Shown one piece after another: positions 7,349-39,907 of a stretch of DNA of 64,000 bases. A program made the translations under genes and the position numbers. Origin of the DNA: Candidatus Doriopsillibacter californiensis (GTDB lineage: Bacteria; Pseudomonadota; Gammaproteobacteria; Tethybacterales; Persebacteraceae); the NCBI GenBank assembly GCA_030386295.1, contig JANQAO010000001.1, positions 135,546-199,545 of the forward strand. Direction: 5' to 3'. Below the pieces are notes generated by a model. It worked only from the letters and a program-made list of their open reading frames with translations. It did not search any database and had not been told where the DNA came from. How positions within the stretch are numbered: position 1 is the stretch's first letter; every line of letters begins with the position of its first letter.

Positions 7349-8485
7349 TTACATACGTACTGGCATTACAACATACTGAAAAGATGGCTCACCGTCACCA
7401 GCTGGTTCTATTAATACACTACTTGATTCCTCTAAAAGACGCATTTTAAAAACATCTTCCTCCACAGCGGACAATATATCCAATAGAAAATTAATATTAA
7501 AACATAATTTAATTGCATCATTTTCATATTTAGCGTCAGTCTCTTCTACCGCGCTTTCATTCTCTTTATTTACACACTCTAGTTTCATCCCTTCGGGGGA
7601 AAGCGATACGATAACAGTTGCGCCACGTTCCTCAGCCAACACAGAGACTCGTTGCAGGCTGGCTAAAAAAGACCTCCGTTCCACTAAGGCTATTTTGTCA
7701 TTATTACGAGGAATAACCGAACGATAGTCAGGAAAAGTCTCCATAATAATATTAGACGTCAACTCAAATGTGTCACCACAAAACCGTACTACCCGATTGC
7801 CTGCTTCAATTTTTATTTCGTTTTCTCCTTCTGCTGACAAATTACGAATAAGCTCGTTAACACTTTTTCTTGGTAATATCAGTTGAGCATCATCTGCCAT
7901 CTTTTCCGGCGTCAGAACTTTCATTGCTAAGCGATGCCCATCCGTTGCTACAAACCGCAAACCATCAATAGAGCTTTCTAAAAACACTCCATTAAGATTG
8001 GTGCGGTGGGATTGTTGAGCAGAAGCATAATGTACTTGCCGAAGCGATTCTAATAACGTTTTTGCTTGCACGTTGAGCAACGGTTTAATATCTGTACTTT
8101 TTCCCATTAACGGAAAATTTTCTGCTGATAAAGTTTGTAATTTATATTTACCGCGCCCAGCAGTCAGTTGCATAAGAAGCTGTTTTTCTCCACCATCGTT
8201 TTTTTCTTCTTCAAATACCAAACTAACTTCCATCCCTTTTTCTAATTTTCTAATGATATCTTGGAGTTTTTTAGCGGGTACGGTTATGCCGAACTCAGCA
8301 TCTGTCTCCACATTACAAGATGACATAATTTGCATTTCTTGATCTATCGCGGTCATGCTAAGGGATGAGCCGGCTGCCTGTAATAAAACGTTAGCAAAAA
8401 TCGGGTTAATTACAGTTCCTTGGGTAACCCCACTAACTTTATCTAGACAGTGTAACAACGAACTTTGATTTGTTGTAATTTTCAC
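7349..8485 (-). CDS. dnaN: DNA polymerase III beta sliding clamp
   Basis: 378 aa with three-domain beta-clamp architecture, located immediately downstream of dnaA. Confidence 0.93.
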   Translation of the reverse strand: MKITTNQSSLLHCLDKVSGVTQGTVINPIFANVLLQAAGSSLSMTAIDQEMQIMSSCNVETDAEFGITVPAKKLQDIIRKLEKGMEVSLVFEEEKNDGGEKQLLMQLTAGRGKYKLQTLSAENFPLMGKSTDIKPLLNVQAKTLLESLRQVHYASAQQSHRTNLNGVFLESSIDGLRFVATDGHRLAMKVLTPEKMADDAQLILPRKSVNELIRNLSAEGENEIKIEAGNRVVRFCGDTFELTSNIIMETFPDYRSVIPRNNDKIALVERRSFLASLQRVSVLAEERGATVIVSLSPEGMKLECVNKENESAVEETDAKYENDAIKLCFNINFLLDILSAVEEDVFKMRLLEESSSVLIEPAGDGEPSFQYVVMPVRM

Positions 8486-8618
8486 AACGACTTCTCCTTC
8501 TTATTAAATATTAATATTAATTAAATGTTAATGATGATGTACCCTGTATAAAAACATAAAAACTATTATCCTTCATTGAAATAAAAGGAGTTGAGCTTTA
8601 TTATCTTATGTATAAAGC

Positions 8619-8627
8619 TGTGTATAA
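8619..8627. promoter_or_regulatory. Perfect DnaA box (TGTGTATAA, i.e. TTATACACA) in the AT-rich 235 bp dnaA-dnaN spacer, with a weaker TTATCCTTC at 8566-8574
   Basis: Read directly from the sequence. The spacer 8486-8720 is strongly AT-rich with repeated TTAATATTAA-type motifs (DUE-like). Confidence 0.4.
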
Positions 8628-8720
8628 CAGGTGTGTGATTATTGATAGAATAATTTTGGTTATTAAATTGCACAGAGTTATGTTTATACTGTGAAAGGGT
8701 TTTATACATGTTATCAAGCA

Positions 8721-10052
8721 TTAAGATTTAATGAGCATTTCTAAGATTTGTATTTCTTCTTGGGTTTTTGAATTGGCTTTAAGTTCTTTTTCTATTTTAC
8801 GGCAGGAATGTAATACAGTAGTATGTTCTCTATCGCCGAACTGAGCGCCAATTTCTGGCAGACTAAGGTTAGTTAGTTGTCGGCAGAGGTAGATAGCAAA
8901 GTGACGTGGTTGTGCTATTGAACGGTGACGGCTACGAGAAGATAAATCAGATACACGTAAGCGGAAAAAATCAGCTACTTTCTTTTTTATGATATCTACG
9001 TTAACTGTTTCTTTTGCGGATTCTAATAAATCGGTTAGTGCTTCGTGGCAAATTTCTAAAGAAGGCGGCTTGCCAGAAAATGTGCAGGCAGCTAAAATGC
9101 GATGTAACGCACCTTCCAGTTCACGTACGTTGGATTTTATTCGTTCAGCAACAAAACGGGTAACTTTTTCGTCCAATTTAACACCCCGGGCCAACGCTTT
9201 TTTATGCAAAATAGCTTCACGTAATTCCAGCTCAGGGGGAGCTAAATGTGTGGGTAAACCACAACGCAGACGAGAAGTTAAACGCTCCGGTAAATCACGA
9301 ATTTGTGAAGGAGCGCGGTCGCTAGTGATAATGATAATTTTATTTTCATCGTGTAATTTGTTGAAAAGAAAGAAAAATTCTTCCTGAGTGCGTTCCATAT
9401 TACCGCCGATATATTGAATATCGTCCACAATTAGTAAGTCTAGACCATCGTAACGACGTTTAAACTGGGCATGCTGATTTAAACGGCAAGCGTTAATAAC
9501 ATCGGTCATAAAGTCACGTGCCATTACATAACGCACTTTACGCGTAGGATGCAAAGATAAATAGTGGTTGGCAATAGCCTGTGCTAAATGAGTTTTGCCA
9601 AGTCCTGTGCGGCCATAAAGAAGTAACAGCGGGCTCATGTGGTCTACCGTGCCACTGCTGATAGCGCGTCCGGCAACTAAGGCAATTTCGTTTGCCCGAC
9701 CAGGCACAAAAGAGTCAAAAGTGAGATCGGCGCGCAGATTAGTTGTACGGTCTACCTGCGTTTTAGTACGCGCTGAAGGCGATGTTTTTGATGCCGGTTT
9801 TGAAATGGATTGAGCCATATCGGTCTGAAAATCTATTTGGATGTCTTTGCCAAAATGTTGTTGTGCCATTTCTCGAACTGACGGCTTAATGTTTTCAGAT
9901 AACCAGCGCACAGTAGCTTCGTTTGGTGCCTGCAACAGTAAGTGGGTATTGTCCGTCATTTTCGCCTGAGTCGGAGAAATAAAAGCGTCAAAAACCGTGT
10001 CACCAAACTGGAGACGTAACTGGGAAACACAAGATGACCAAAAATTTTCCAT
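8721..10052 (-). CDS. dnaA: Chromosomal replication initiator DnaA
   Basis: AAA+ Walker A (GRTGLGKTHL), an LLIVDDIQY box, sensor motifs and a C-terminal DNA-binding helix-turn-helix domain. 443 aa. Confidence 0.95.
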   Translation of the reverse strand: MENFWSSCVSQLRLQFGDTVFDAFISPTQAKMTDNTHLLLQAPNEATVRWLSENIKPSVREMAQQHFGKDIQIDFQTDMAQSISKPASKTSPSARTKTQVDRTTNLRADLTFDSFVPGRANEIALVAGRAISSGTVDHMSPLLLLYGRTGLGKTHLAQAIANHYLSLHPTRKVRYVMARDFMTDVINACRLNQHAQFKRRYDGLDLLIVDDIQYIGGNMERTQEEFFFLFNKLHDENKIIIITSDRAPSQIRDLPERLTSRLRCGLPTHLAPPELELREAILHKKALARGVKLDEKVTRFVAERIKSNVRELEGALHRILAACTFSGKPPSLEICHEALTDLLESAKETVNVDIIKKKVADFFRLRVSDLSSRSRHRSIAQPRHFAIYLCRQLTNLSLPEIGAQFGDREHTTVLHSCRKIEKELKANSKTQEEIQILEMLIKS

Positions 10053-10657: not shown

Positions 10658-12290
10658 TAGCGCAAGCAGCGGGTGTTTTTGGTAGTCCAGGCATAGTCAT
10701 AATATTGCCACCGAGTAGCACAATAAATTCGGCACCCGTATTCAAACGAGCGCCCGATACATGAAAACTGTAACCATCTTTGGGAATACCGCGGTTGAGT
10801 GGATTGTTAGTAAAAGCATACTGTGTTTTGGCGATACAAATTGGAAAATGTCCGTGGGTTTCTTGCCATTGTTCCAAGTCTGCCGACACTTTAGGGTCAG
10901 AACTCACTGCGTCAGCGCCATAAATTTTATGTGTAACCGCTTCTGCTTTTTGCTTAAGAGGCAAAGAGTCATCATACAGATTATTCATTTTAACGTCGCT
11001 ATTAGCTAAGGCGGCTACTTTTTCTGCCAGTTCAACGGCGCCCTTGCCACCATTTGCCCAATGGTAGCAGATGCTCATATCTGCCCCTTCTTCCTCACAG
11101 AGAGAGCGGAACGTCGCAATTTCGTCATCCGTGTCGTGGGTGAAGTGGTTAAGTGCGATAACAACCGGTAAGCCGTAATGGGTACGGATGTTGCGCAAAT
11201 GACGGCGGACATTTTCAAAGCCGTCACGAACCGCCTGCGTATTTTCCTTGTTCAAGTCATCACGGGTTATGCCGCCGTGATATTTGACGGCGCGCAGAGT
11301 GGCAACTAGTACAGCGGCATCAGCGGCTAGCCCGCTTTTGCGGCATTTAATGTCCACAAATTTTTCTGCGCCTAAGTCTGCGCCAAAGCCTGCTTCGGTG
11401 ACAACATAATCAGCCATTTTGAGTGCCATGCGGGTAGCTAAAACAGAATTACATCCGTGGGCAATATTAGCGAAAGGACCACCATGTACAAAAGCAGGAT
11501 TATTTTCTAACGTCTGCACCATATTAGGCGATAGTGCATTTTTGAGCAAGGCGGTCATGGCACCGGCGACACCCAGTTCGTCAGCGGTGACCGGTGTTTT
11601 ATCGGTGTCAAGACCGACCGTGATTTGCGCAATGCGTCGTTTGAGGTCGGTTAACGACTCGGAAAGGCACAAAATTGCCATAATTTCAGACGCCACCACG
11701 ATATCAAAACCATCACTGCGAGGAAAACCATTACCAGGGCCGCCCAAGCCAACTACTAATTGGCGCAGAGCTCGGTCATTCATATCTACTACCCGCCGCC
11801 AGAGTATGCGACGACTGTCTAGGCGTTTGGCGTTGCCGTGATGCAGGTGGTTGTCGATAATTGCTGCAAGCAAATTATGTGCCAGCGAAATAGCGGAAAA
11901 ATCGCCGGTGAAATGAAGGTTAATATCTTCCATGGGGACAACTTGCGCATAACCACCACCGGCGGCACCGCCTTTCATTCCAAAAACAGGGCCGAGCGAG
12001 GGTTCTCGTAGAGCGACGGCAGCGTTTTTTCCAATATGGTTGAGCGCGTCTGTGAGACCGACGGAAGTCGTTGTTTTTCCCTCACCGGCAGGGGTGGGGG
12101 TGATGGCGGTGACAAGAATTAATTTACCGTCAGGTTTTTCGGCGTGAGTCCTCAGCAAATCAAGAGAAAGCTTGGCCTTGTAGTGGCCAAACGGTTCCAT
12201 TTCAGTGGCGGGTAGATCAAAGCGTTCGGCGGCTAGTTCAATAATGGGCCGCATAGTTGCCTGTCTGGCAATATCAATATCGGTGGGCAT
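10617..12290 (-). CDS. fhs: Formate--tetrahydrofolate ligase
   Basis: [17 protein letters not shown]-loop and full-length (557 aa) similarity to the FTHFS family. Confidence 0.9.
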
Positions 12291-12429
12291 AAGGTTCCTT
12301 TCTCCTGATACAGACTGCTATTATATTTGAAAGCGTTCCAGAGAGCTTTGTGCTCGCTATGATTTTTGTTAATTGACAATTTATTAGGAATTAGAAGAGG
12401 CCTATTAACAAGTTGCGATATTAATTTTA

Positions 12430-12849
12430 TTAAGGCGTTTTTGAGATGCGCCACGTATGATTGACGGCGGCAGTTTTATTAAGCATGGCCAATGCGGAAC
12501 AATATTTTTCAACACTTAACTGCACCGCGCGAGCGACTGACGCCGGCTTTAAGTGGTCGCCGACTAAGACAAAATGTAAGGAAATACAGGTAAATACATT
12601 GGGAACAGCGTCTGTTCGTTCAGCTTCAATATTAATTTGAAGTGACAGTGGCTCTTGCTGCATTTTTTTGAGAATGTGTACCACATCAAAAGCACTACAA
12701 GCCGCAGCGGCTGATAACATTCCTTCCATCGGGCGCATCCCGCAATTTTTCCCGCCGTGTTCGGGAGGCCCATCAAAAATAATTTGGTTGCCGTTAGTAT
12801 TTGCAACTTCAAAAGCAACGTTTTCTAGCCAACGTAAAGTAAGGTTCAT
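12430..12849 (-). CDS. OsmC/Ohr family peroxiredoxin-like protein
   Basis: 139 aa with OsmC-like organisation and two conserved Cys regions. Confidence 0.75.
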
Positions 12850-13118
12850 TTGGCGGGAGGAACGTAGCCGGATGCGGTTTCCGCACCATCGCCAAAAAAG
12901 TGTCTTTCTGTTTGCTCGGCAAGATATTCGCGGGCGCGGCGGTCGGCCATGTTAAGGCGGTATTCATTGACTAGCATTTTTTGGTGCTCTAACCAATGCC
13001 GCCATGCTTCGGCGGAAACATTGCTAAGCAGGCGTTGTCCGAGTTCGCCCGGATAGGGAGGCGCGACCATTGCTTCAGCTTCTTTTTTTAATTTAATACA
13101 AAAAACGGTTTTGCTCAT
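12846..13118 (-). CDS. yggX: Fe(2+)-trafficking / oxidative-damage protection protein YggX
   Basis: 90 aa with strong resemblance to YggX (..[10 protein letters not shown]....YPGELGQRL...VS.EAW..W...Q.ML.NE..LN..). 4-nt overlaps with both neighbours. Confidence 0.8.
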
Positions 13119-14320
13119 GGGATGATTTTCTCCTGGGATGTTTCATGTGAAACCAATTGTTCGGCAATATGGGCGATTAATGCTTGAGCTGCTTGGGGCT
13201 TGGGTTGGCGCGGTAACGAAATTTCCCCTGCGGAAGAAATAATCAGTAGTTCACTGTCATTTTTGCCTGCATCGCTGAGTGCGTTGGCGGCAATGACGGA
13301 TAATTTTTTTTGCTGTCGTTTTTTGCGGGCGGCTGTGGCGCGGGTGGTGGCATTACCGCTTTGGGCGGCGAAGCCGACGGCAAATAATCGTGGGTATTGT
13401 TCGGTAATAGCGCTGAGGATGTCGGTTGTCGGGTTGAGTTGTAATATTAATACGCCTTCTTTGTGGGCAATTTTCCCTCGTTTGGGCGTAGAGGGACGAA
13501 AGTCCGCCACCGCCGCTACGGAGATGAAGACGTCCGCACGACGGCATTCCTCAATGGCAGCGGCGAGCATTTCTTTGCCGCTTAGTGCGCGTCGCAGAGG
13601 TAACGGTGGTGGTGGTGCGGTAGTTTGTCCAGCAAGAATAACGACCTCCGCGCCTGCCTGGTGGGCGGCTTCGGCAATGCAAAAACCCATGCGCCCACTG
13701 CTCATATTGCTGATAATTCTCATATCATCCAAGTATTCCACCGTGGCTCCGGCGCTGATAACAAAGCGCAGACCGTTCAGAGGTCGAGTTAATCGATTTT
13801 TCAATTGTTGAATAATATTTTCGGGTTCTGACATTCTTCCTTCGCCGTTTTCACCACAGGCTTGTACGCCGCTATTTGGTCCGATGACAGTAACGCCGTC
13901 CGCTAGGAGTTGTTGGATATTGCGCTGAGTAGCCGCGGCCCGCCACATTTGTTGATTCATTGCCGGCGCGACTAGGCGTGGAATGTCTGCGGCTAAAAAA
14001 GTTGAAAGTAAACTGTTATCGGCAATACCAGCGGCGGCTTTAGCTAAAAAATCAGCGCTAGCAGGTGCTATCAGTAGTGCTGTGGCCGAACGAGAAAGAT
14101 GGATATGGTCCATACCATCTGCGGATAGTGGTGCATTCCATTCATCTGTGGCAACGGCCCGCCCGCTTAATGCGCGAAAAGAGGCGGTGCCGACAAAACG
14201 TGTTGCCGCTGGAGTCATAATGACTTGCACTTCATCACCTTGTGCCGTCAGGAGCCGAGTTAATGCCGCCGCTTTGTAGCAGGCAATGCTACCGCAGACG
14301 CCTAAGATTATGGTTCCCAT
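13115..14320 (-). CDS. coaBC: Bifunctional phosphopantothenoylcysteine decarboxylase / phosphopantothenate--cysteine ligase
   Basis: N-terminal flavoprotein domain ([20 protein letters not shown]) plus a C-terminal DFP/CoaB domain. 401 aa. Confidence 0.9.
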
Positions 14321-14814
14321 AATTTAAATTGTAGCATTGCACATCAAGATGACAGAATATAAAAGAGAGAGTAAAATATCGTAGAGAACGAAAAAAGAAG
14401 AGTTCAACCGCTGACGGTGTTGATGGCGCCAATCATTCCGGCTGTAACCGACAGCGAAATAGAATAATTGCTTTTTGCCGCCGCTACTGCTGGCGCACAG
14501 CATGCCGGTTATGTGGTGTTGCGGCGGCCACACGAAGTAAAAATGTCTTTGAAGATGGGCTTCATTAGCATCTACCGCTCCGAGTGCAAAGGGTTATGTC
14601 ACAGGTGCGCGAGATTACAATCCCGAATTTTTTCCCCGCCAAGGGGCGTGGAGTATTGGCAGATCTTATTGCTACACGCTCTACTGCGGCGCGGCATCGC
14701 TATGGGTTGAATTTGCCGCGTCGCCAAGAATTGTGCTGCGATCTGTTTCGTCCACCATCGGGGGACAATTGAGGTTGTTATAAGGAAATTATAAAAGTCA
14801 ATGCCGAATTGCTT

Positions 14815-28282: not shown

Positions 28283-29437
28283 ATGATTCGTAAAAAATTA
28301 ATTACCCTATTATTGTGTTTGTCATTTCCAGCAGCTGCGGCACCGCCATTGCCAGAAATTGAATCGGAATCGTATATCTTAATGGATGCCGATACGGGAG
28401 TTGTGCTGGCCGAAAAAAATCCCGACTTGCGGTTGCCACCAGCGTCCTTAACCAAAATCATGACCGCGTATGCGGGCTTTAAGGCAATTTCCGAAGGACG
28501 TGCCGAATTGCAGCAACAGGTACGAGTATCACGTAATGCTTGGGCACAAAGTGTTGCGGGTTCAAAGATGTTTTTAGAGGTAGACACTGATGTGCGCATT
28601 GAAGAATTATTGAGAGGTATCATTATTCAATCTGGTAATGATGCTTCCATTGCCTTGGCAGAATCGCTTGTCGGTGATGAAGCTGCTTTCGCACAGTGGA
28701 TGAATGAGCAGGCGGAAAAGTTAGAGTTGAAAAATAGTCATTTTGTCAACGCTACGGGTTTGCCGGACGAGCAGCATTATTCTTCTGCACGAGATATGGC
28801 ATTGCTGGTGCGTCGCACTGTGTTGGATTTTCCGGACTTTTATAAAATGTACGCCGAGCCGGAGTACACCTACAACAACATTCGCCAAGAAAATCGCAAC
28901 GGACTGCTTGATAGTTTTGCTGGCGCTGACGGCGTTAAAACCGGTTATACCAAGGCGGCCGGTTATTGTCTGGCAGCATCTGCAGTGCGCAACGGACAGC
29001 GCTTAATTTCAGTGGTAATGAAAACTGCATCCATCCGTAAGCGTGAAATTGCCAGCAGCAAGTTGTTAGCATATGGATTCAACCATTTCAAACAAGAGCG
29101 CCCTTTTGACGACAAAAAAACGCGCAAATTACCTGTGGCAGAGGGAGTTGAGAAAATGGTTACAGCAAAGCCGACCGTTCCGGTACTAATGACCATAGAG
29201 CGTGGGCAGAAAGTGAAAGCTTTATTTCATCCGGTTACTCCGCTAATTGCTCCTATCAATAAAGACATGGTGGTGGGCTTTATTGAAATTAGTGTGGATA
29301 ATGCGGTGGTGGGTACCGTCACTGTGGCGGCGGTAACAGATGTGGCAGCGGTAGGACGGTTCAAACGGTGGGCTGATATTGCCAAAAGTTATTTTTCAGG
29401 GGATAAAGATCATGACTTTGTGTTATCTGAATGGTGA
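28283..29437 (+). CDS. dacA: D-alanyl-D-alanine carboxypeptidase (PBP5/6 family) with signal peptide
   Basis: SLTK (SxxK) active-site motif, SGN and KTG triads, and an N-terminal signal peptide. Confidence 0.85.
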   Translation: MIRKKLITLLLCLSFPAAAAPPLPEIESESYILMDADTGVVLAEKNPDLRLPPASLTKIMTAYAGFKAISEGRAELQQQVRVSRNAWAQSVAGSKMFLEVDTDVRIEELLRGIIIQSGNDASIALAESLVGDEAAFAQWMNEQAEKLELKNSHFVNATGLPDEQHYSSARDMALLVRRTVLDFPDFYKMYAEPEYTYNNIRQENRNGLLDSFAGADGVKTGYTKAAGYCLAASAVRNGQRLISVVMKTASIRKREIASSKLLAYGFNHFKQERPFDDKKTRKLPVAEGVEKMVTAKPTVPVLMTIERGQKVKALFHPVTPLIAPINKDMVVGFIEISVDNAVVGTVTVAAVTDVAAVGRFKRWADIAKSYFSGDKDHDFVLSEW

Positions 29438-30263
29438 AATTGAGCATCTGAAAGACGCACGAGTATCGGTTTTAGATCGCGGTTTTCTTTTTGGTGATGG
29501 TGTGTATGAAGTGGTGCCCGTATATGCGGGCAAGCCGTTTTACTGGGAGCGGCACATGGAGCGGCTGGCGCGGAGCTTAAAAAAAACCGGAATTGAAGCC
29601 AAAACGGAGTTATTAGAGCAGTCCGTACAAGAGCTTATTTCCCGTGCTGACAGCGACTATCTAGCATTGTATATCCAGATTACCCGTGGTGCAGCGGCAA
29701 CAAGAAAACACTTTTTTCCCCGCCCTGCTCCTTCGCCTACGGTGTTTATGATGGCCACGCCGCTAGCGCCGGTAGCAGCGGAAAAAATTCAAAACGGCGT
29801 TTGTTGCAGAAGTGAAAAAGATTTTCGTTGGCAGCGCGGTGATATTAAATCCATATCGTTGTTGGGTGCTGTGCTTGTCTCTGAAGAAGCGACTGCTGGC
29901 GGTTATGAAGAAACAATATTTGTGCGCGACGGTGTAGTCACTGAAGCGGCCGCCTGTAATATTATTGTCGTACAAGATAAAAATCATGTTGTCACACCGG
30001 TTGCTGATGAACGTATTTTGCGCGGTATTACTCGCGACGTTGTACTGGAGATTGCGCGCAGTCTGGATATTGAGGTAGTGGAGCGAGACGTCACGCGCGC
30101 TGAATTGGCGGTAGCGCCCGAAGTTTGGATTACGTCTTCTACTCGCGAAGTGCTACCGGTGACAGAATTAGACGGAGTCGCTATTGGGAGTGGAAAACCG
30201 GGTGCGGTTTTTCAAAAAGTGTATGCGGCGTTGCGACGGCATATTGAAAATGGGGGCTTTTGA
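29412..30263 (+). CDS. Class IV aminotransferase (D-amino-acid / branched-chain type)
   Basis: Fold-type IV PLP enzyme with catalytic Lys region and E..RG...DGVYE pattern. The start was chosen at the internal Met (the ORF track gives 29379). Confidence 0.7.
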   Translation: MTLCYLNGEIEHLKDARVSVLDRGFLFGDGVYEVVPVYAGKPFYWERHMERLARSLKKTGIEAKTELLEQSVQELISRADSDYLALYIQITRGAAATRKHFFPRPAPSPTVFMMATPLAPVAAEKIQNGVCCRSEKDFRWQRGDIKSISLLGAVLVSEEATAGGYEETIFVRDGVVTEAAACNIIVVQDKNHVVTPVADERILRGITRDVVLEIARSLDIEVVERDVTRAELAVAPEVWITSSTREVLPVTELDGVAIGSGKPGAVFQKVYAALRRHIENGGF

Positions 30264-31086
30264 TATTTCTTTGAGCGAACAAGTCACAGTAGATGTGGTG
30301 GCGGCATTGAAAGAAGATGTGGGTAGCGGTGATATTAGCGCTCCGTTGGCACTGGAGAATGAGCGGCGTTGTGGTGTGCTTTATGCCCGCCAAGAAGCCG
30401 TGTTTTGCGGGCAGTCGTGGTTTGAGGCGTGTTTTTGTCAATTAGATGATAAAGCCATTTTTGACTGGCGGCTACAAGACGGGGAGCAGCTGTCATCGGA
30501 TATCGTTGTGTGCGAAGTGCAGGCACAAATTCGTGCCTTGCTAGCGGCGGAACGTAGTGCGCTTAATTTTGTTCAAACGTTGTCAGCGACAGCAACTCTC
30601 ACTCATCGCTGGCAGGCGCTTGTGGGCGATGTTGTCATTACCGATACCCGAAAAACATTGCCCGGCCTACGGGTGGCACAAAAATATGCGGTGCGAGTAG
30701 GCAGTGGTACTAATCATCGCATGGGCTTGTTTGACGAAATTCTCATCAAAGAAAATCATATCGCTGCGGCAGGCGGCATAAAAGCGGCGCTGACAAAAGC
30801 GTGCACGCTGACGGATATAAAAAATATTCAAATTGAAGTTCGTTCGCTTGCTGATTTGGACATCGCCTTAGCGGCGGGTGCGCGCCGTGTGTTGTTAGAT
30901 AATTTTTCTTTGCCGTTGCTGAAAGATGCCGTGCAGCGGTGTAGTGGACAAGCCGAACTGGAAGCTTCTGGCAATGTCACAGAAGATAAACTTGCCGCTA
31001 TAGCTGCTACGGGCGTGCATCGAATTTCTGTCGGCGCGCTTACTAAAAATGTGCAGGCCGTTGATTTTTCTTTTCTGATTAACTAA
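30250..31086 (+). CDS. nadC: Nicotinate-nucleotide pyrophosphorylase (carboxylating)
   Basis: QPRTase family, about 279 aa from the internal Met. The ORF-track start is at 30184. Confidence 0.85.
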   Translation: MGAFDISLSEQVTVDVVAALKEDVGSGDISAPLALENERRCGVLYARQEAVFCGQSWFEACFCQLDDKAIFDWRLQDGEQLSSDIVVCEVQAQIRALLAAERSALNFVQTLSATATLTHRWQALVGDVVITDTRKTLPGLRVAQKYAVRVGSGTNHRMGLFDEILIKENHIAAAGGIKAALTKACTLTDIKNIQIEVRSLADLDIALAAGARRVLLDNFSLPLLKDAVQRCSGQAELEASGNVTEDKLAAIAATGVHRISVGALTKNVQAVDFSFLIN

Positions 31087-31204: not shown

Positions 31205-32233
31205 TTAGTTGGGGATAGAATAATCTACGTTTTCACCGGCTTCCAATAATTCGCGGCGACGTTCGCGTAGATAAGCGCTATAAGTTGGGTAAGCTTTGCG
31301 CCCGCCGATGGTCACGTAGCGTACCGCCTCGCGGAAATGATAATGATTTAACAAACCAGTGATACGAAAAATTTCCGCACCCATTTCATCAAAAAAAACA
31401 ACGCCAGGGCGGTAATGTAAATTTAAATCTGCTGCAAATTGTCGGGCCGTCGTCTTTTTTCCTGATGGTGTGATGAGTGGCGCATCCGATAACGCATCCA
31501 CCCGCGCCACCGTTAGTTGTTGCATCTGTTCTCGCACGTCAACAAGATTCAAAATATTATCGTGTAGCCAGTTACAGCCATGACAATTATTATCTTCTAC
31601 TAATACCATGAGCGGATGATGACGGACAGATAAATCATCGTTTTTGGTAAAGAGTGGGTCATCACGTAAATGGTACACCGGTTCGCTTGTGTCGCGTACA
31701 CGGTAATCGTTATAGGACATGGTTTTGTAGGCGCCGTTGTGGACGTATTCTAGCGCTTGCCTTAGTGCCGGCGGCGAACGGTAGCCGTTAATTTCCAGTA
31801 CGGTATTGCCGTTGGCGGCCATAAATAACAAAGTAGGAGTGTATTGTACGTTTGCATAACGGGCGTACTTTTTTTCAGTCATGGTATTGCCGTTGATAGT
31901 CACTTCTCGAGCACCACGAATGTTAATGTCCACGATGTCAAAATGAGAGCGGCTAAAAATTTGATTGGCGGCACCATCAGCAAATGAGTCTTCTAGCATT
32001 TTGGCACAATAAGGACAATCTTTTAGATGAAAAAATACCAACAAATGACGTCCTGCTAGTGCTGCTTCAGCGGAGTCTTCGTTAATGTCCAAAAAACTGT
32101 CTTTAAACCAATTAGGAATATCGTAATTTTTTGTTCCTATGATACGTCCGTCGGCGTGACCTCCTATCGTAACGGTGAACAGAGCTATAACGGCAAACAG
32201 CCGTTGCAGAGATAAAAAATTATGGGCGTTCAT
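31205..32233 (-). CDS. Secreted thioredoxin-fold protein with two Trx-like modules (CPYC and CHGC motifs)
   Basis: N-terminal signal peptide and two CxxC motifs within thioredoxin-like contexts. 342 aa. Confidence 0.55.
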   Translation of the reverse strand: MNAHNFLSLQRLFAVIALFTVTIGGHADGRIIGTKNYDIPNWFKDSFLDINEDSAEAALAGRHLLVFFHLKDCPYCAKMLEDSFADGAANQIFSRSHFDIVDINIRGAREVTINGNTMTEKKYARYANVQYTPTLLFMAANGNTVLEINGYRSPPALRQALEYVHNGAYKTMSYNDYRVRDTSEPVYHLRDDPLFTKNDDLSVRHHPLMVLVEDNNCHGCNWLHDNILNLVDVREQMQQLTVARVDALSDAPLITPSGKKTTARQFAADLNLHYRPGVVFFDEMGAEIFRITGLLNHYHFREAVRYVTIGGRKAYPTYSAYLRERRRELLEAGENVDYSIPN

Positions 32234-32612: not shown

Positions 32613-34175
32613 ATGAAAATAACTGTTCCCGACATCGGCGATTTTCAAGATATAGCCGTTATTGAAGTGTTAGTGCAACCGGGCGATACCGTTGCTGTTG
32701 AAACCTCACTGCTTACCTTGGAATCGGACAAAGCTACTATGGAGGTGCCGTCTCCAGTTGCTGGGCGAATTGCCGCTGTGCATGTGAAAGCAGGTGACAA
32801 AGTTAGTATGGGCTCCCACATTGTTGATTTGGAAGATGCTGCCACGTCAAGCTCGGAAACGAAAAGTCCCGTGGGGGAGTCTGTAGTTCCTGTATCGCCG
32901 CCGCCCGCCGCATCAACATCAGGAGAAGTAATGGAAGTGCGAGTGCCGGATATTGGTGATTTTAATGATGTAGCGATTATTGAAGTATTAGTGCAGCCGG
33001 GCGATGCCATTGTCGCAGAGGCTCCGTTGCTTACCTTAGAATCGGACAAAGCAACCATGGAGGTGCCGGCGCCTTTTGCTGGCATAGTGCAAGAAGTGCT
33101 AGTTAAAACCGGAATCAAGATCAACATGGGTGACTTAATTGCTCGCGTTACCGTCACCGATGCGCCTATTATTGCTCTGCAAGTAGCTGAAGAGCCGCCC
33201 ATATCACCGGCACCATCGGGGCCTGTTCCGGAATTGCGCAATGCGCCTCTACCGCCGGTAGTGGAGCCTGCAATCAGCAGTAAGCCTCACGCCAGCCCTT
33301 CTGTTCGCCGTTTTGCGCGTGAGTTGAGCGCGGATTTGAGTAAAATTAAAGGCAGCGGTCCGCGTGGGCGTATTCTCAAAAGTGATGTACAAGCTTACGT
33401 AAAAGCAGTACTAAAAAGTGGTGACGAAAGCAGTGGTCGCGGCTTACCTAAAGTGCCACCGATTGATTTCTCGCAATTTGGCGATATTGAGTTGCACCCA
33501 CTGTCGCGTATTCGCCAGTTATCCTCCAGCTATCTGCACCGTAATTGGGTAGTTGCGCCGCACGTAACACAGTTTATTGAAGCCGACATTACCGACATGG
33601 AAGATTTCCGCCAATCGCTTGCCGAGGAAGCAAAAAAAGAGGGCTATCGTATGACACCGCTGGCCTTTTTTATTCGCGCGGCAGTCATGGCACTTAAACA
33701 ATTCCCGCATTTCAACGCTTCTCTGCACGAAGATGAAAAATGTTTGGTGTACAAAAAATATTTCAATATTGGCGTGGCGGTAGACACTCCCAGCGGTTTG
33801 CTGGTGCCGGTGTTGCGCAATGCTGATAAAAAAGGGCTCGCTGATATTGCCCGTGAGTTGGCAGAAATCAGCGCTCGTGCCCGTGAAGGAAAAATTAAAG
33901 CTGAAGAAATGCAAGGCGGTTGTTTTACCATTTCGTCACTGGGTGGTATTGGTGGTTTGTTTTTTACTCCGATACTGAATTTGCCAGAGGTAGCAATTTT
34001 GGGGGTGTCACGCGCCGCCACACGCCCGCATTGGGACGGCAAGGCGTTTGTACCGCGCTTGATGCTACCATTGTCATTGTCATATGATCACCGGGTTATA
34101 GATGGTGCTGATGGTGCTCGCTTTATCATGTATTATTCTGAGTTATTGAGTGATATTCGGCGACTGGCACTGTAA
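32613..34175 (+). CDS. aceF: Dihydrolipoamide acyltransferase (E2) with two lipoyl domains, a subunit-binding domain and a catalytic domain; aceF-like but orphan
   Basis: Two ESDKATMEVP lipoyl-Lys motifs, a subunit-binding region and the C-terminal DHRVIDGADGARF catalytic motif. No E1 or E3 gene is nearby. Confidence 0.85.
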   Translation: MKITVPDIGDFQDIAVIEVLVQPGDTVAVETSLLTLESDKATMEVPSPVAGRIAAVHVKAGDKVSMGSHIVDLEDAATSSSETKSPVGESVVPVSPPPAASTSGEVMEVRVPDIGDFNDVAIIEVLVQPGDAIVAEAPLLTLESDKATMEVPAPFAGIVQEVLVKTGIKINMGDLIARVTVTDAPIIALQVAEEPPISPAPSGPVPELRNAPLPPVVEPAISSKPHASPSVRRFARELSADLSKIKGSGPRGRILKSDVQAYVKAVLKSGDESSGRGLPKVPPIDFSQFGDIELHPLSRIRQLSSSYLHRNWVVAPHVTQFIEADITDMEDFRQSLAEEAKKEGYRMTPLAFFIRAAVMALKQFPHFNASLHEDEKCLVYKKYFNIGVAVDTPSGLLVPVLRNADKKGLADIARELAEISARAREGKIKAEEMQGGCFTISSLGGIGGLFFTPILNLPEVAILGVSRAATRPHWDGKAFVPRLMLPLSLSYDHRVIDGADGARFIMYYSELLSDIRRLAL

Positions 34176-34517: not shown

Positions 34518-35453
34518 GTGCGCATATGGCTGATGGACAGCGGTGGTGCTGGTTTTCGCGCACAAACGGCAGGACTTGGCAATGCCATTGCCGCCCGCCA
34601 TCCACAAACGGCAATAACCACAATAACGGTTTCGTCTCGATTGTGGCCGCGGTTGTTTTTATCAGCGTCGTTGCCCGATAAGGATAGACCCGACGTAGTG
34701 ATTGCCTGCGGTCGTGCTGCTGTTGTTCCGGCATTAGCGGCTAAACGCCGACATGGCGCCTTTACTGTGTACATCCAGCGTCCACCGAAGGCTAACGCTT
34801 TTGACGCTGTTGTCTGCGGATTACATGACAATTTAACTGGTGACAATGTGCTGCCGATTATTGGTTCCGTTGGCGGTTTTTGTGCTAATACTCTGGTACA
34901 TCGTCGCCACGCTGCCGAAAAAATATTTGCGGCAGTGCCAGAGCCGCGTACCGCTGTACTTATTGGCGGCAGCAACCGCGCTTTTAATTTTACTCCAGAA
35001 GATTGCCGACAACTGGCGGCAGAAATTAAAGAAACAGCTGGCGACAGCGGGTTGTTGGTGAGTGTTTCCCGTCGTACCGGAAAACAAAACACCGCAATTT
35101 TTGATACGGCTTTTGCTGGTAGCAAGCATTTTTTTTTCAACGGCAACGGTGACAATCCTTATACCGACATGTTGGCCGTTGCCGACCGTTTTGTAGTGAC
35201 CGGTGACTCAGTTAACATGCTTAGTGAAGCTTGCACCGCGGGCAAGCCGACTTATATTTTTCCGCTGCGGAAAAAATTTATATGCGTCACTGCCGCTAAA
35301 TTTCATCGGTTTCATCACCTGCTTATTGATAATGGTTATGCCCGCTTATGGGAAAAACGGTTTGATGAATGGAGTTCGCCCGCATTCAACGAAACTGCGC
35401 GTGCGGCTGACTTTGTTTTGCGCCGCTATCATGAGTGGTGCCAACGCGGATGA
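34518..35453 (+). CDS. ELM1/GtrOC1-family (DUF1022) putative glycosyltransferase
   Basis: 311 aa. The N-terminus RIWLMDSGGAGFRAQTAGLGNAI and overall pattern resemble the bacterial 'mitochondrial fission ELM1' family. This is a recognition-based call. Confidence 0.55.
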   Translation: MRIWLMDSGGAGFRAQTAGLGNAIAARHPQTAITTITVSSRLWPRLFLSASLPDKDRPDVVIACGRAAVVPALAAKRRHGAFTVYIQRPPKANAFDAVVCGLHDNLTGDNVLPIIGSVGGFCANTLVHRRHAAEKIFAAVPEPRTAVLIGGSNRAFNFTPEDCRQLAAEIKETAGDSGLLVSVSRRTGKQNTAIFDTAFAGSKHFFFNGNGDNPYTDMLAVADRFVVTGDSVNMLSEACTAGKPTYIFPLRKKFICVTAAKFHRFHHLLIDNGYARLWEKRFDEWSSPAFNETARAADFVLRRYHEWCQRG

Positions 35454-35468
35454 TATAATTATTTTCAT

Positions 35469-36122
35469 ATGAACGCCGTCGTCAGCGCTATAGATTGGGA
35501 TGTTTTGCAGCAAACTTCGGTGCAAAAATCTCCTTTTCCGCATCTCATTGTTCCAGGTTTTATTGCAGCGGCACAGAAGGATGTGGTTAACCGCGATTTT
35601 CCTGACATTCAATCACCGGGTTCTTTTCCCGCGGCTACGTTGCACTGTGGTGATGCTTTTTCAGGTTTGTTGGAGGAATTACGAGGGGCGCGCTTGGCGA
35701 CTTTAATAGGCGAAAAATTTGGTATGGAACTTGGTGATCGTGAAACCATGATTACTGTGCGTGGTCAGTGTCGTTCCACCGATGGCAAAATTCATCTAGA
35801 TTCAAAAGGCAAGCTTATTACCATATTGATTTATATGAATGGTCCGTGGGAATCCGACGGTGGTCGTTTGCGATTACTCAACGGACCTGATGATATTGAA
35901 GATTATTTTGCAGAGACACCGCCGTCACAAGGAACGATGCTGGCTTTTGCTTGCGCTGATAATGCTTGGCACGGACACAAAAGTTTTTCTGGTCGGCGTC
36001 GTGCCATTCAACTTAACTGGGTGCGGGATGAGCGCTACCTACGCCGCGAACGCCAGCGTCATACTGTTAGTGCCGCACTCAAAAAAGTAAGCCGTTTTTT
36101 TAGGCTGCAAAAAAAGACTTGA
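35469..36122 (+). CDS. 2OG-Fe(II) oxygenase superfamily protein (P4H-like small dioxygenase)
   Basis: HLD...H...R motif set (HLDSKGK ... AWHGHK ... GRRRAIQLNW) on a roughly 217 aa DSBH scaffold. Confidence 0.6.
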   Translation: MNAVVSAIDWDVLQQTSVQKSPFPHLIVPGFIAAAQKDVVNRDFPDIQSPGSFPAATLHCGDAFSGLLEELRGARLATLIGEKFGMELGDRETMITVRGQCRSTDGKIHLDSKGKLITILIYMNGPWESDGGRLRLLNGPDDIEDYFAETPPSQGTMLAFACADNAWHGHKSFSGRRRAIQLNWVRDERYLRRERQRHTVSAALKKVSRFFRLQKKT

Positions 36123-36141: not shown

Positions 36142-38034
36142 ATGGCATTGCCCATCCAAACGTTTAGCAATCAATCCGGCGGATTTTCTTATTTTAAGGC
36201 GCTTGGTCATCCTTTGGCGGTTACTGGTGGAGCCGCTATTTTGAAAAAAATTCGCACAGCTCGGCGAGCTGCCGTCTATGACCCACTGGGGCAGTTAACG
36301 GCTTTTTCCGCATTGCACGGCTTGCGAACCGATGATTTTACTGATTGTTTCGTCCGTGACACGTTTTTACTTAATGAACAAACGCTGGGGCATGACCATC
36401 GTCCAGTTACCGAGCTTGCGCACGCGGATATAGATGTATTGTTTATGCCGGTTTTTGACGCCGGGTTGCTGTTAGATCAAATCAGCGGGCTGTTGCCTGC
36501 CGGTTGCGTTACGGTGACGCTGGACGAGATGCGCATTCCTGGGCGATTGCTCACCAACAAACGCAATTATTTAGACAAACTTAATTTCGCCACCAATTTT
36601 GCTTTCTTTCGTGATGAAGCGGGTAAACATTCGCGGCTGGTCACCGCCAACTATTGGGGAGGCTATGGTGCAAAAGGTACATTTTTATGGTGTCGCTTGT
36701 TTGCAGGTAGCGGTGACGTGTTGCTGGATTTTGAAGTGCCGCTGCAACACGCTAATCAAACCGTGGTGATTGATAGTCGCCAATTGCGTGCTGAGCATGG
36801 GTTGTCCGATTTTTGTGGACAATTATTTATTTCAGTGGTTAATGGTGCCGGGCACGATATCGTCAAGTATGTAATTGATACGGGCGGCGGCGAAGAAGAA
36901 GTTAGTTGTACGCATGATGCTAACGCTTGGCCGGCGGATTTGTACGCTGGGTTGCCTGCGCCCATGGCGGATGAAAAGGTGTTGCTGTGGGTGCAAAATT
37001 CGCATCCCGTTCCGATTGCTGCAAGTGAAATCGGGTTAAATCTGATGGGTGATAACAATATTGCTTGGCTGGACGAAGAAATTGCTCCCTTTGCTAGCTG
37101 TGCTGTAGACGTGTCATCTTTGCTACCTAACGCGCGCTGGCCACAGCAATTGGAAATTCAAGCTGGCAAGTGGTTTGTGCGTCCACGTTATGAAATTATT
37201 AAAGCGGGTCGGAGTCGTATTAATCATCCCAATGTAGAGCGCAATGACTTGCAGCACGATGAGAACATTCGCCGTTTGACCGCACACTTGGGTAAAGGTT
37301 TTATCTTGCCTGCACCGATTTTGCCGCCAGATGAATTCGTTAGTGAGTGTTTGCCCACGCCGATGTCTACGGCGCAAACCTCTTTGCCTATTATTACCGT
37401 TGCCTATGATGCTGACGGTAATGAAATCGCCCGCGAAGCTTTAGGCAATCTGCCGCGCAATCATACTCGGCAAGTAGATTTAACAGCGCTCGCCGCTAAC
37501 ATCCCCGCTGGTGGTGGTCATGTGGAATTGCAGTACGATTTAGATGCGAATGGAGTGATGGATGGTTGGCTGCATGCATTGTTTCGTTACACGGACAAAC
37601 GTTCTGGTCACGGCGCTGACACTAGTTTTGGCGCACACTTATTCAATCACATCATGACTTTTCGCAGTGAACCGCAGTCTTACAAAGGTCCGCCACCGGG
37701 ACTCAGCACCCGTCTATTTTTGCGCTTGATGCCAGCGCCGGCACGCGTTTTTTGCCATCTAACTTACGCGGTTTGTTCACAATGGCATGCGTATTCCAGC
37801 ACTATACTGGAGCTCAAAAATGCAGCTGGAGAAGATGTATCCCGTACTGCTTTTTCTATTCCTGCCAACGGCTCGCGGTTGTTTTTTGCTGATGAAATGT
37901 TCAATGCTACTGATTTGCAGCAGGCTGGCGACAATGGCTATATTTTGGTGCGTGATAGTACCTGCCGTCTGTTTGGTTATCACGGTGTCCGGCAGAACAG
38001 CGGTTTTGCGCTAGATCATATGTTTGGCTTTTAA
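36142..38034 (+). CDS. Large hypothetical protein (630 aa) with no family I can recognise; no signal peptide or TM segments apparent
   Basis: Long uninterrupted ORF with genome-typical codon usage and tight spacing to its operon neighbours (19 nt upstream, 18 nt downstream). Confidence 0.7.
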   Translation: MALPIQTFSNQSGGFSYFKALGHPLAVTGGAAILKKIRTARRAAVYDPLGQLTAFSALHGLRTDDFTDCFVRDTFLLNEQTLGHDHRPVTELAHADIDVLFMPVFDAGLLLDQISGLLPAGCVTVTLDEMRIPGRLLTNKRNYLDKLNFATNFAFFRDEAGKHSRLVTANYWGGYGAKGTFLWCRLFAGSGDVLLDFEVPLQHANQTVVIDSRQLRAEHGLSDFCGQLFISVVNGAGHDIVKYVIDTGGGEEEVSCTHDANAWPADLYAGLPAPMADEKVLLWVQNSHPVPIAASEIGLNLMGDNNIAWLDEEIAPFASCAVDVSSLLPNARWPQQLEIQAGKWFVRPRYEIIKAGRSRINHPNVERNDLQHDENIRRLTAHLGKGFILPAPILPPDEFVSECLPTPMSTAQTSLPIITVAYDADGNEIAREALGNLPRNHTRQVDLTALAANIPAGGGHVELQYDLDANGVMDGWLHALFRYTDKRSGHGADTSFGAHLFNHIMTFRSEPQSYKGPPPGLSTRLFLRLMPAPARVFCHLTYAVCSQWHAYSSTILELKNAAGEDVSRTAFSIPANGSRLFFADEMFNATDLQQAGDNGYILVRDSTCRLFGYHGVRQNSGFALDHMFGF

Positions 38035-38052
38035 AATTAACAAGAATTTATT

Positions 38053-38580
38053 ATGAATATTACGCTTTCCAAATTTAACGCACTTGCCGCTGCTAAATTA
38101 ACATTGATGGCGGTGATGATGTTTGGTTTTGGTTATGCGATGGTGCCGCTGTATTACAAAATCTGTCAAGTAACGGGCATTAAAAATTTACTTAATCCTG
38201 CCGACACGGATGATATTGCCGTTGATCCCAATCGCCGCTTGCGGGTGGAATTGGACACCAACGCCCGCGGATTGGTGTCAATGAGTCCCAGTGTGCGGCT
38301 AATGGACAGTGTGGAGTCGGGACAAACATACAGTGTTATCTATACGCTTAAAAATCTTAGCAATCGTCGCTTGGTTGGTCAGGCTATTCCATCTTATGCT
38401 CCGGCGCGTGCCGGAGCGTGGTTCAAAAAAATTCAATGTTTTTGTTTTGATCAGCTAACAATGGAGCCCGATGAAGTGCGGGAGGCACCGGTGGTGTTTA
38501 TTATTGATGCTGCCATGCCTGAGGATATCAACACGGTGGCGTTGTCATATACTTTTTTTGAGGTAGAAGGCGCTCAGTGA
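38053..38580 (+). CDS. ctaG: Cytochrome c oxidase assembly copper chaperone Cox11/CtaG
   Basis: N-terminal TM anchor plus the Cu-binding CFCF motif (IQCFCFDQ). 175 aa. Confidence 0.85.
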   Translation: MNITLSKFNALAAAKLTLMAVMMFGFGYAMVPLYYKICQVTGIKNLLNPADTDDIAVDPNRRLRVELDTNARGLVSMSPSVRLMDSVESGQTYSVIYTLKNLSNRRLVGQAIPSYAPARAGAWFKKIQCFCFDQLTMEPDEVREAPVVFIIDAAMPEDINTVALSYTFFEVEGAQ

Positions 38581-38756
38581 AAGCCTTTTTGCTTGCTGCT
38601 AAAACTGTTATTTTCGCTTTTTTTGGGGTTCGCCGCAAAAATGCTGCAGCAACTGATTGGAATACACTTAAGCCGCATCATGTCATTATTGCCGGAATTT
38701 TTATGGCAGCATTATTTATCGCTATTATCTTGACCGTGGTAGATTTAATCGTTTAA
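38577..38756 (+). CDS. DUF2970-like small membrane protein (59 aa, GTG start overlapping the cox11 stop)
   Basis: Translation VKAFLLAAKTVIFAFFGVRRKNAAATDWNTLKPHHVIIAGIFMAALFIAIILTVVDLIV. It is absent from the ORF track (under 60 aa) and resembles small proteins found in oxidase assembly clusters. Confidence 0.5.
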   Translation: MKAFLLAAKTVIFAFFGVRRKNAAATDWNTLKPHHVIIAGIFMAALFIAIILTVVDLIV

Positions 38757-38836: not shown

Positions 38837-39907
38837 TTGTGTCACATGAAAAAACAACCGTTCTGTGTTGTTCGTCAGTGCGAGGAGCCGCTTTTTAGCC
38901 TTTTGTATCGGGCACGGGTAAAATACACGATGATGACGCAAGTGCCTTCTGGATCCAATGTCGCTGGTATGCAGACGGATTCGTTTCGCCGCCCATGGTG
39001 GCTGTTTTCCGGTCATATGGAAACCATTGCATCACTTTATGAACGCAATCAAGAGTCATTTGAAAATCGTGTTATTCCAACACCGGAAGGCGATGAAATT
39101 TTACTTAGTTATGTAATGGGCGATGAAAAAATGCCCTTGCTAACTTTGTTTCATGGATTAGAAGGATGTGCGCAAAGTCACACCATACGCCTACTGGCAT
39201 CTTATTTTATCGCTCAAGGGTGGACAGTGGCGGTGCCACATTTTCGTTCTTGTGGCCACATGAATCGATTGCCGCGCGCCTATCACGCCGCCGACGGTGC
39301 CGAGGTGCGCTGGATGTTAAATTGGTGTCGTGCTGCTTTTGTTCGGCCGTACACCTTTGCCGCTGGTGTGTCATTAGGTGGCAATGCGCTGATTCGTTGT
39401 TTGGACTCTACTGATGAAACAGAGTCGTGTTGTGCAGCGGCAACCGTGAGTGCGCCGCTGGACTTAACTGCCGCTGCTTATCATCTCAATAGTGGTTTTC
39501 CGCACCTGCTATATGGGCGGCATTTTTTAAAACTACTACGTGCTAAAGTGCTGGTTAAGGCGGCACGCTACCCGTCAATATGTGATTTAAAAAAGCTGCG
39601 CCGTGCCCGCACTATTGGCGATTTTGATGAACTATACACTGCACCAGTACATGGTTTTTCCAGTGCCCAAGCATACTGGCGGCGAGCATCAGCCTATACT
39701 GCCCTGTTGCGAATGAAAACGCCGTTGTTGTGTATAAACGCGCAAAATGATCCAATGGTACCAGTAGCCTCGCTACCAGTTAAGGCGTCATCAGCGGTTA
39801 GTTTTTGTCGTCCTCGGCACGGTGGACACGGCGCTTTTTTTGGTAAGCCGGCTAATTGGCTGGCCGCTACGATGGGCGATTTTTTCAACCAATATATGAA
39901 TTCTTAA
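38837..39907 (+). CDS. YheT-type alpha/beta hydrolase
   Basis: HGLEG...nucleophile elbow GVSLGGN; abhydrolase family. The start is uncertain (alternative Met at about 38927). Confidence 0.7.
   Translation: MCHMKKQPFCVVRQCEEPLFSLLYRARVKYTMMTQVPSGSNVAGMQTDSFRRPWWLFSGHMETIASLYERNQESFENRVIPTPEGDEILLSYVMGDEKMPLLTLFHGLEGCAQSHTIRLLASYFIAQGWTVAVPHFRSCGHMNRLPRAYHAADGAEVRWMLNWCRAAFVRPYTFAAGVSLGGNALIRCLDSTDETESCCAAATVSAPLDLTAAAYHLNSGFPHLLYGRHFLKLLRAKVLVKAARYPSICDLKKLRRARTIGDFDELYTAPVHGFSSAQAYWRRASAYTALLRMKTPLLCINAQNDPMVPVASLPVKASSAVSFCRPRHGGHGAFFGKPANWLAATMGDFFNQYMNS

Follow-up and report, generated by a model that had tools for sequence, protein, structure and literature searches.

We analyzed a 64,000-nucleotide stretch of DNA (the window) from the gammaproteobacterium Candidatus Doriopsillibacter californiensis (Tethybacterales; assembly GCA_030386295.1, contig JANQAO010000001.1, positions 135,546 to 199,545 of the forward strand), focusing on one open reading frame (ORF) at positions 36142..38034 of the window (+ strand), which encodes a 630-aa protein hereafter called the target. 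This analysis revealed that the target is a dedicated genomic partner of a KdoT-type glycosyltransferase gene and, in most lineages, also of a gene for a prolyl-4-hydroxylase-like (P4H-like) oxygenase. It belongs to a widespread, strongly conserved, previously uncharacterized family that is restricted to Proteobacteria. The best reading, which we hold tentatively, is that the target is a cytoplasmic sugar-binding enzyme or specificity subunit working on the Kdo (3-deoxy-D-manno-octulosonic acid) region of lipopolysaccharide (LPS). Whereas the KdoT-type inner-core module is already known, the two extra components that travel with the KdoT-type gene here are an addition to it.

Linkage was counted across the 80 best species loci. 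A gene of the ELM1 family (PF06258) adjoins the target gene in 72 of them, and the same arrangement recurs in L081-L085, L087 and L088, whereas the eight loci that lack it comprise five short or truncated contigs and three Azospirillum loci. In the window, this gene (34518..35453, + strand) lies two genes upstream of the target and is a more informative neighbor than those named in the original prediction, which missed it. It encodes a GT-B glycosyltransferase of the ELM1/GtrOC1 family that matches PF06258 over its full length (E 1.2e-76) and carries SRRT at residues 184-187 and an H103-D104 pair. Among the neighboring ELM1-like proteins, SRRT is kept in 70 of 71 and the H-D pair in all 71. 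Members of the Pfam family were earlier annotated only as "mitochondrial fission ELM1" or as putative GtrOC1 glycosyltransferases of Acinetobacter outer-core (OC) loci (PMC4172580), until the A. baumannii protein KdoT (A1S_2903) was characterized in 2024-2025 as the CMP-Kdo:Kdo2-lipid IVA KdoIII transferase (PMC10936431, PMC12856342). Its R180, within the C-terminal SRRT motif, is essential and was modelled in contact with the Kdo carboxylate (PMC12856342); other Acinetobacter KdoT homologues also complement in vivo (PMC12856342), as does one from Rickettsia in an A. baumannii kdoT mutant (PMC10936431, PMC12856342). Judging from its Pfam family and the SRRT and H-D landmarks, the window gene is probably of the KdoT type. 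The target co-diverges with the ELM1-like protein (r = 0.83) and is the most conserved of the trio, with a mean pairwise identity of 0.59 against 0.49 for the ELM1-like protein and 0.55 for the oxygenase.

The second conserved partner is the prolyl-4-hydroxylase-like 2-oxoglutarate (2OG)/Fe(II) oxygenase (35469..36122, + strand), which matches PF13640 and has an intact H-x-D...H triad plus the Arg. Its gene is found immediately upstream of the target, on the same strand, in 49 of the 80 loci, and the two proteins co-diverge with r = 0.85; the complete trio is present in about 43 loci. Additionally, the protein P0116 (L088, 4059-6683) is a colinear oxygenase-linker-target fusion with no stop codon between its parts, in which the usual start codon of the target is replaced and an in-frame ATG lies 25 codons upstream. 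The original prediction had drawn attention to the position of the target between an oxygenase and Cox11, and the oxygenase half of that claim is strengthened by the linkage, the co-divergence and the one fusion. The L088 fusion is itself flanked by an ELM1 gene upstream and by genes for a ribulose-phosphate 3-epimerase and a heparinase II/III-like protein downstream. The sequence of the window oxygenase agrees completely (100% identity) with a protein recorded at NCBI for 'Candidatus Persebacteraceae bacterium Df01' (P0271), which makes an origin of the window in this sponge-symbiont lineage of the Tethybacterales most likely.

A profile search places the closest PDB sequences of the oxygenase among P4H-type and PHD-type (prolyl hydroxylase domain) entries (9blq, 9ei6, 6ey1, 4iw3), the last of which is the Pseudomonas prolyl hydroxylase solved with EF-Tu; the literature on entries 9BLQ, 9EI6 and 9EI7 yielded nothing relevant. 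These names raise the prospect that the oxygenase hydroxylates a protein which the GT-B enzyme then glycosylates, with the target serving as the substrate adaptor or as the substrate itself, by analogy with Skp1 in protists and with the hydroxylation of EF-Tu by the Pseudomonas enzyme PPHD. The frequent location of the trio beside translation-related or housekeeping genes such as greA would agree with such a role. However, greA and carB neighbors are ordinary alphaproteobacterial synteny, and the similarity to prolyl hydroxylases is weak, with E values of 1e-9 to 1e-14 to uncharacterized entries and above 1e-3 to the PHDs. Moreover, the glycosyltransferase partners keep SRRT, whose arginine is the residue modelled in contact with the Kdo carboxylate in KdoT, and genes for LPS and lipid A are found repeatedly next to the trio, so that we regard modification of a protein as quite improbable.

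The target itself is a genuine, complete, cytoplasmic protein encoded in a tight operon. The ATG-started ORF is confirmed by both termini, which agree with a 40-homologue consensus out to the outermost residue at either end (MALPIQTFSN at the start, where the consensus is MALxIxTFSN, and LDHMFGF-stop at the end); the agreement of the first and last residues indicates that the ends were correctly called, and the existence of more than 4,274 homologues excludes a chance ORF. The protein has a mass of 69 kDa and an isoelectric point of 5.8. Inspection of hydropathy and of the N-terminus found neither a transmembrane segment nor a signal-peptide-like sequence, the highest 19-residue Kyte-Doolittle mean being 1.49, within a strand-helix region of the N-terminal domain. 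The earlier description of a long, clean ORF for a cytoplasmic protein without signal peptide or transmembrane helices thus stands. The same description had pointed to scattered acidic stretches; one of these, GGGEEEVSCTHD, covers residues 248-259, and its acidic part varies among family members, whereas all 40 homologues share the subsequent motif S-C-T-H-D-x-N-x-W-P unchanged, and H258, D259, N261, W263 and P264 are still invariant in a set of 48 sequences. The ELM1-like, oxygenase, target and Cox11 genes form one co-directional block with gaps of 15, 19 and 18 bp. Scans of the operon for promoters and terminators gave no signal above chance, and no Rfam element was found in the 31-42 kb region of the window.

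Searches against known families left the target unnamed. It matches no Pfam model at E<=10, either as a whole protein or as four segments, no NCBIfam or PADLOC model, and no PDB sequence at E<=10, whether a single sequence or a 40-sequence family profile is used as the query. The original prediction had called it a protein of no recognizable family and the key unknown of its operon, and both statements hold; a confident match to a characterized family, sought by sequence and by fold, did not turn up. In contrast to this lack of names, the family is large: more than 4,274 full-length homologues of about 630-650 aa share 52-73% identity, every one of them labelled hypothetical, and at least 589 GTDB species genomes among those scanned encode a member. 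An exhaustive profile search of 1.84 billion representatives returned 745 matches, mostly fragments of the target family, and no distant paralogues. The named carriers are almost all Alpha-, Beta- and Gammaproteobacteria, i.e., makers of LPS, including Azospirillum, Nitrospirillum, Pelagibius, Thalassobaculum, Stellaceae, Kiloniellaceae, Methylophilaceae, Thiobacillus, Sulfuriferula, Competibacteraceae and sponge symbionts. Odd taxon labels (Anaerolineae, Bdellovibrionales) are few and all come from bins of metagenome-assembled genomes; at one locus, L007, gene spacing and identities are the same as at the alphaproteobacterial locus L006. A defense-system or phage origin of the target was rejected in view of the lack of a PADLOC match and the housekeeping-gene surroundings.

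Structure prediction gave a compact, multidomain protein. An AlphaFold2 model built with a 40-sequence alignment reached a pLDDT (predicted local distance difference test) of 91.2 and a pTM (predicted template modelling score) of 0.91. It consists of a small Rossmann-like alpha/beta domain (about aa 1-140; 36142..36561, + strand), which is weakly conserved, and a compact, nearly all-beta body (aa 141-630; 36562..38031, + strand), which holds most of the invariant residues and folds equally well when modelled alone (pLDDT 92.0, pTM 0.91). The body comprises about three beta-sandwich domains by our reading of the strand pattern, as distinct from a computed domain parse. Comparison of four target segments with one another by hhalign gave probabilities of at most 8%, and the sandwiches are therefore not recent duplications. 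The N-terminal domain is Rossmann-like at the level of fold only. It has no glycine-rich phosphate-binding loop, the sequence after the strand at residues 43-46 being VYDPLGQL, in which only D47 is invariant and Y46 and P48 are nearly so.

Most of the conservation falls in the beta-body, with 22-26% of its positions invariant against 7% in the N-terminal domain, the lowest value. The residue types most often invariant are Trp (67% of all Trp), Tyr (56%), His (42%) and Arg (33%). In a set of 48 sequences with identities as low as 42%, the polar residues that never vary are H238, K242, H258, D259, N261, N286, H288, Q336, R347, R349, Y350, E351, H362, N364, R367, D373, H478, H499, N502, E510, S513, Y514, D605, R609 and H626, and W263 and W476 are also invariant. 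Acidic-sugar binding sites typically show such a pattern, and the modelled architecture with its conserved aromatic, His and Arg residues would fit the binding of an acidic sugar substrate. Two segments, residues 1-14 (with invariant I5, T7, F8 and G14 in a flexible N-terminal peptide) and about 510-520, combine invariant sequence with low model confidence and would suit lids or partner-contact peptides.

At the fold level, the only significant matches of the target are binding modules, namely ASRT/TM1070, carbohydrate-binding modules (CBMs), galectins and the glycosylation accessory proteins Asp2, Asp3 and Gap3; the model contains an eight-stranded beta-sandwich that superposes on TM1070/ASRT. 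A Foldseek search against the PDB returned only strings of immunoglobulin domains with template modelling scores of about 0.1, which we judged spurious. There was no match to the catalytic folds of GT-A, GT-B or GT-C glycosyltransferases, beta-propeller sialidases or jelly-roll lyases, to kinase, cytidylyltransferase or aldolase-like folds, or to cupredoxin, peptidylglycine alpha-hydroxylating monooxygenase (PHM) or tyrosinase folds. A protein whose sole fold relatives are binding modules, and in which no catalytic fold was found, might be a non-catalytic sensor or scaffold like stand-alone ASRT/TM1070, one that binds a sugar metabolite or nascent glycolipid and regulates or organizes the KdoT-like enzyme and the oxygenase. 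Coupling at the level of the pathway would also be in line with the unexplained in-vivo dependence of A. baumannii KdoT on downstream steps (PMC12856342). Set against this are the roughly 25 invariant polar residues, seven His and four Arg among them, which are spread over all three beta-domains and more typical of an active site, the lack of any DNA-binding or signalling output domain, and a degree of conservation above that of both enzyme partners. Conservation this high argues for catalysis or an exacting multi-ligand role, and we leave the sensor or scaffold a small probability.

These features lead back to the reading we prefer, in which the target would take part in assembling or modifying the LPS inner core (the Kdo region) at the cytoplasmic face of the inner membrane; we consider this pathway assignment nearly, though not quite, as probable as its negation. 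In the proposed mechanism, the compact beta-sandwich body would form a putative pocket lined by the invariant His, Arg, Tyr, Trp, Asp and Asn. This pocket might hold an anionic sugar, which could be the activated ulosonic acid or else the Kdo-lipid A intermediate that the KdoT-like enzyme makes or uses. The target might then catalyze a further conversion itself or, as a specificity subunit, present the substrate to the oxygenase for hydroxylation. The link to the oxygenase suggests coupled hydroxylation by analogy with KdoO, which converts Kdo to Ko (D-glycero-D-talo-octulosonic acid) and is a functional precedent, not a homologue. Both the sugar-binding pocket and its coupling to hydroxylation are put forward purely as hypotheses.

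A different division of labor would place the pair on the donor side: the target and the oxygenase would produce, in the cytosol, a modified ulosonic acid or nucleotide sugar, e.g., a hydroxylated, Ko-type one, and the ELM1-like transferase would install it, with no action on a lipid-linked intermediate. All three proteins are soluble, the target having no transmembrane segment, and KdoO is known to hydroxylate only the outer Kdo, both of which count for this scheme. So does the occurrence in Acetobacteraceae of Ko bound directly to lipid A, to which the reporting paper assigns no gene (PMC8036547). However, the N-terminal domain is the least conserved part of the target and has no glycine-rich nucleotide loop, and the fold searches found nothing like a kinase, cytidylyltransferase or aldolase; a donor-side role is therefore unlikely. 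The Acetobacteraceae structure also makes attractive a KdoO-independent route to Ko, which figures in a bolder version of our preferred reading. In that version the target would be a new class of enzyme built only of carbohydrate-binding-type beta-sandwiches that, with the oxygenase, makes a novel modification of Kdo or another inner-core sugar, e.g., Ko formed by such a route or another hydroxylated ulosonic acid, and to this we assign a rather low probability.

Several observations weigh against placing the target in the Kdo pathway. No catalytic fold or motif was recognized in it, and it could be non-catalytic. The oxygenase is nearest to protein prolyl hydroxylases and shows no KdoO-family match, with PF13640 as its only Pfam match and no Kdo hydroxylase in the PDB profile search. 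The P0116 fusion is known from a single metagenomic (Logan) assembly and has a possible internal start codon. Three Azospirillum loci (L059, L072 and L075; target at 8001-9926) have no ELM1-like gene and no oxygenase gene up to 8 kb from the target; in A. cavernae (L074), by contrast, the two genes lie no more than 4 kb away. Most loci, mainly alphaproteobacterial, sit among housekeeping genes (carB, greA, lrp, lysR, trxB), and in these the LPS assignment follows almost wholly from the family identity of the ELM1-like partner. CMP-Kdo transferase activity has been demonstrated only for Acinetobacter KdoT, with the Rickettsia complementation in addition, and the A. baumannii enzyme is active in vitro without any 630-aa partner (PMC12856342). 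Finally, the published Acinetobacter OC loci list no gene comparable to the target (PMC4172580).

The surroundings of the trio differ from one lineage to another, with carB-greA-lrp ... lysR-trxB in Alphaproteobacteria, grpE-dnaK-dnaJ in Betaproteobacteria, and glnA (L083), aceE (L086) or recN-type genes (L085) elsewhere. Because this remaining neighborhood varies, the conserved unit is the pair or trio itself. Envelope-glycan genes accompany it in about a dozen loci. A glycosyltransferase family 4 (GT4) gene lies directly 3' of the target in L002, L035, L042, L047, L051 and L004, and in L002 and L084 a gene for a TviB-type UDP-GlcNAc 6-dehydrogenase (E 1.8e-138), a producer of UDP-GlcNAcA, comes after the GT4 gene. 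L042 also has a GT9 heptosyltransferase-like gene, L082 two GT25 genes, and L084 a whole glycan cluster. In five Stellaceae/Aliidongia loci, a PAP2 phosphatase gene and an ArnT-like GT-C gene stand between the ELM1 gene and the target, a pair typical of lipid A dephosphorylation and glycosylation. It is from these additional neighbors, together with the family of the ELM1-like partner, that we infer the LPS pathway.

Some further features of these loci are of separate interest. In the gammaproteobacterial loci L002 (3288-6306) and L084 (5910-9287), genes for an FkbM-type methyltransferase and further glycosyltransferases lie in divergent orientation beside the ELM1-like gene, an arrangement that hints at methylation of a core or O-chain sugar in these symbionts. 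Ankyrin-repeat and EGF-repeat genes, typical of symbionts, occur on the contigs of the close homologues L083, L084 and L086.

The other half of the positional claim, the weight given to Cox11, did not hold. The Cox11/CtaG copper chaperone gene (38053..38580, + strand; PF04442, NF003465) starts 18 bp after the target in the window and is not a conserved partner: among the 80 genome loci it adjoins the target in 1, and beyond these it does so in L081 and L082, the two metagenomic relatives nearest to the window. In other loci the place downstream of the target is taken by glnA, aceE, lysR/trxB or a GT4 gene. Both relatives show the arrangement ELM1-2OG-target-Cox11-DUF2970-COX3, whose last genes are a cytochrome-oxidase operon tail, and a gene of 59-63 aa (PF11174) directly follows Cox11. 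A 59-aa membrane ORF holds the same position in the window (38577..38756, + strand; GTG start, overlapping the cox11 stop) and is probably DUF2970, a label given by its position in the relatives. Where COX3 would stand, the window has a YheT-like alpha/beta hydrolase (38837-39907) and no COX3. This suggests that cox11 and the 59-aa ORF are a broken oxidase operon tail, the remnant of a cox11-DUF2970-coxC block. Since the linkage is confined to the oxidase-operon tail of the nearest relatives, the adjacency of target and Cox11 is local synteny and not functional coupling.

The spacing, read as co-transcription, had left room for the idea that Cox11 serves the target, whose His-rich beta-sandwich body would then be a cuproprotein or a factor in oxidase assembly. 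Beta-sandwich copper enzymes do exist, and 7-10 His of the target are invariant. However, the genomic linkage just described is absent outside the nearest relatives, no cupredoxin, PHM or tyrosinase fold was matched, and the topologies speak against it: the window Cox11 is membrane-anchored and bears a CFCF copper motif, and the copper domain of Cox11 faces the periplasm, which makes it an unlikely partner for a cytoplasmic protein with neither signal peptide nor transmembrane segment. We therefore rejected the copper reading, which is largely refuted and to which we leave a very slight probability.

Upstream of the operon, the window holds genes that bear on the history of the cassette or were noted in passing. 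The gene aceF (E2; 32613-34175) lies upstream of the ELM1-like gene with no adjacent aceE, and in L086 an aceE gene (E1; 12017-14761) follows the target directly, so that pyruvate dehydrogenase genes flank the cassette in two lineages; the cassette may have been inserted into or beside an ancestral aceEF operon. Between nadC and aceF, in divergent orientation, a gene at 31205-32233 (- strand) encodes a 342-aa protein with Thioredoxin_2 and Thioredoxin_7 matches in two stretches and a weak DsbH/DsbD-like similarity. The ORFs of a class IV (D-amino-acid/branched-chain) aminotransferase (29379-30263) and of nadC (30184-31086) both have TTG starts and overlap by 80 bp; the real nadC start is probably downstream, because the match to the NadC model begins at residue 38. 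On the side of the ELM1 family, plant ELM1 is a protein of the outer mitochondrial membrane, and a lipid A/Kdo pathway persists in the mitochondria of Arabidopsis; plant ELM1 may descend from a Kdo transferase.

LPS inner-core assembly is deemed well mapped, yet the ELM1-like protein KdoT was recognized as a Kdo transferase only in 2024-2025, and in hundreds of proteobacterial species a KdoT-type gene travels with two more genes, one of which is more conserved than either enzyme partner. If the target acts on the Kdo region, it would stand for a step still absent from the known outer-membrane biochemistry of plant-associated bacteria such as Azospirillum, of marine bacteria and of sponge symbionts, the source organism among them, one that could bear on resistance to acid and antimicrobial peptides and on innate immune recognition, and it would be a candidate for a new carbohydrate-active enzyme architecture. 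Should it form a new enzyme class with the oxygenase, an undescribed and widespread inner-core step in Alpha-, Beta- and Gammaproteobacteria would follow, which could explain the Ko found on lipid A in Acetobacteraceae. Even as a mere scaffold or sensor, the target would be relevant to the in-vivo link between Kdo transfer and the steps after it, which lacks an explanation in Acinetobacter.

Among known systems, the Rossmann-like domains of the C-3'-methyltransferase TcaB9 (3ndi), of a WbpM-type protein (3nkl), of FkbM (2py6) and of Rex resemble the N-terminal domain of the target in fold only, and unlike the Rossmann domains of NDP-sugar enzymes it has no glycine-rich loop for nucleotides and shows the lowest conservation within its protein. 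The likeness to ASRT/TM1070 (ASRAH, PF07100; PMC2739507), whose signature is a Trp at the start of strand 1 and an Asn at the end of strand 2 (PMC2739507), is likewise at the fold level: the target has no Pfam model match at E<=10, and its family profile found no sequence match to the ASRT entries 1nc7 and 2ii7 in the PDB. ASRT proteins are stand-alone and of about 115 aa, whereas the target has 630 aa and several domains and is conserved far beyond a single sandwich. KdoO (PF11004) is reportedly an Fe(II)/2OG-dependent Kdo 3-hydroxylase that makes Ko at the cytoplasmic face, and as a 2OG oxygenase acting on the Kdo region it offers a precedent for the role proposed for the oxygenase partner. 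The window oxygenase differs from it in belonging to PF13640 (P4H-like), with no KdoO-type sequence match, and to our knowledge KdoO needs no 630-aa partner.

The closest parallel is the KdoT/GnaT module of A. baumannii (PMC12856342, PMC10936431), in which the GT4 enzyme GnaT acts after KdoT and adds GlcNAcA from UDP-GlcNAcA. The target is not homologous to KdoT or GnaT, but its constant neighbor shares a Pfam family with KdoT and retains SRRT and H-D, and the GT4 and UDP-GlcNAc 6-dehydrogenase genes 3' of the target in several beta- and gammaproteobacterial loci mirror the order of KdoT and then GnaT. Whereas the Acinetobacter module has neither a 630-aa partner nor a 2OG oxygenase, the window system adds both.

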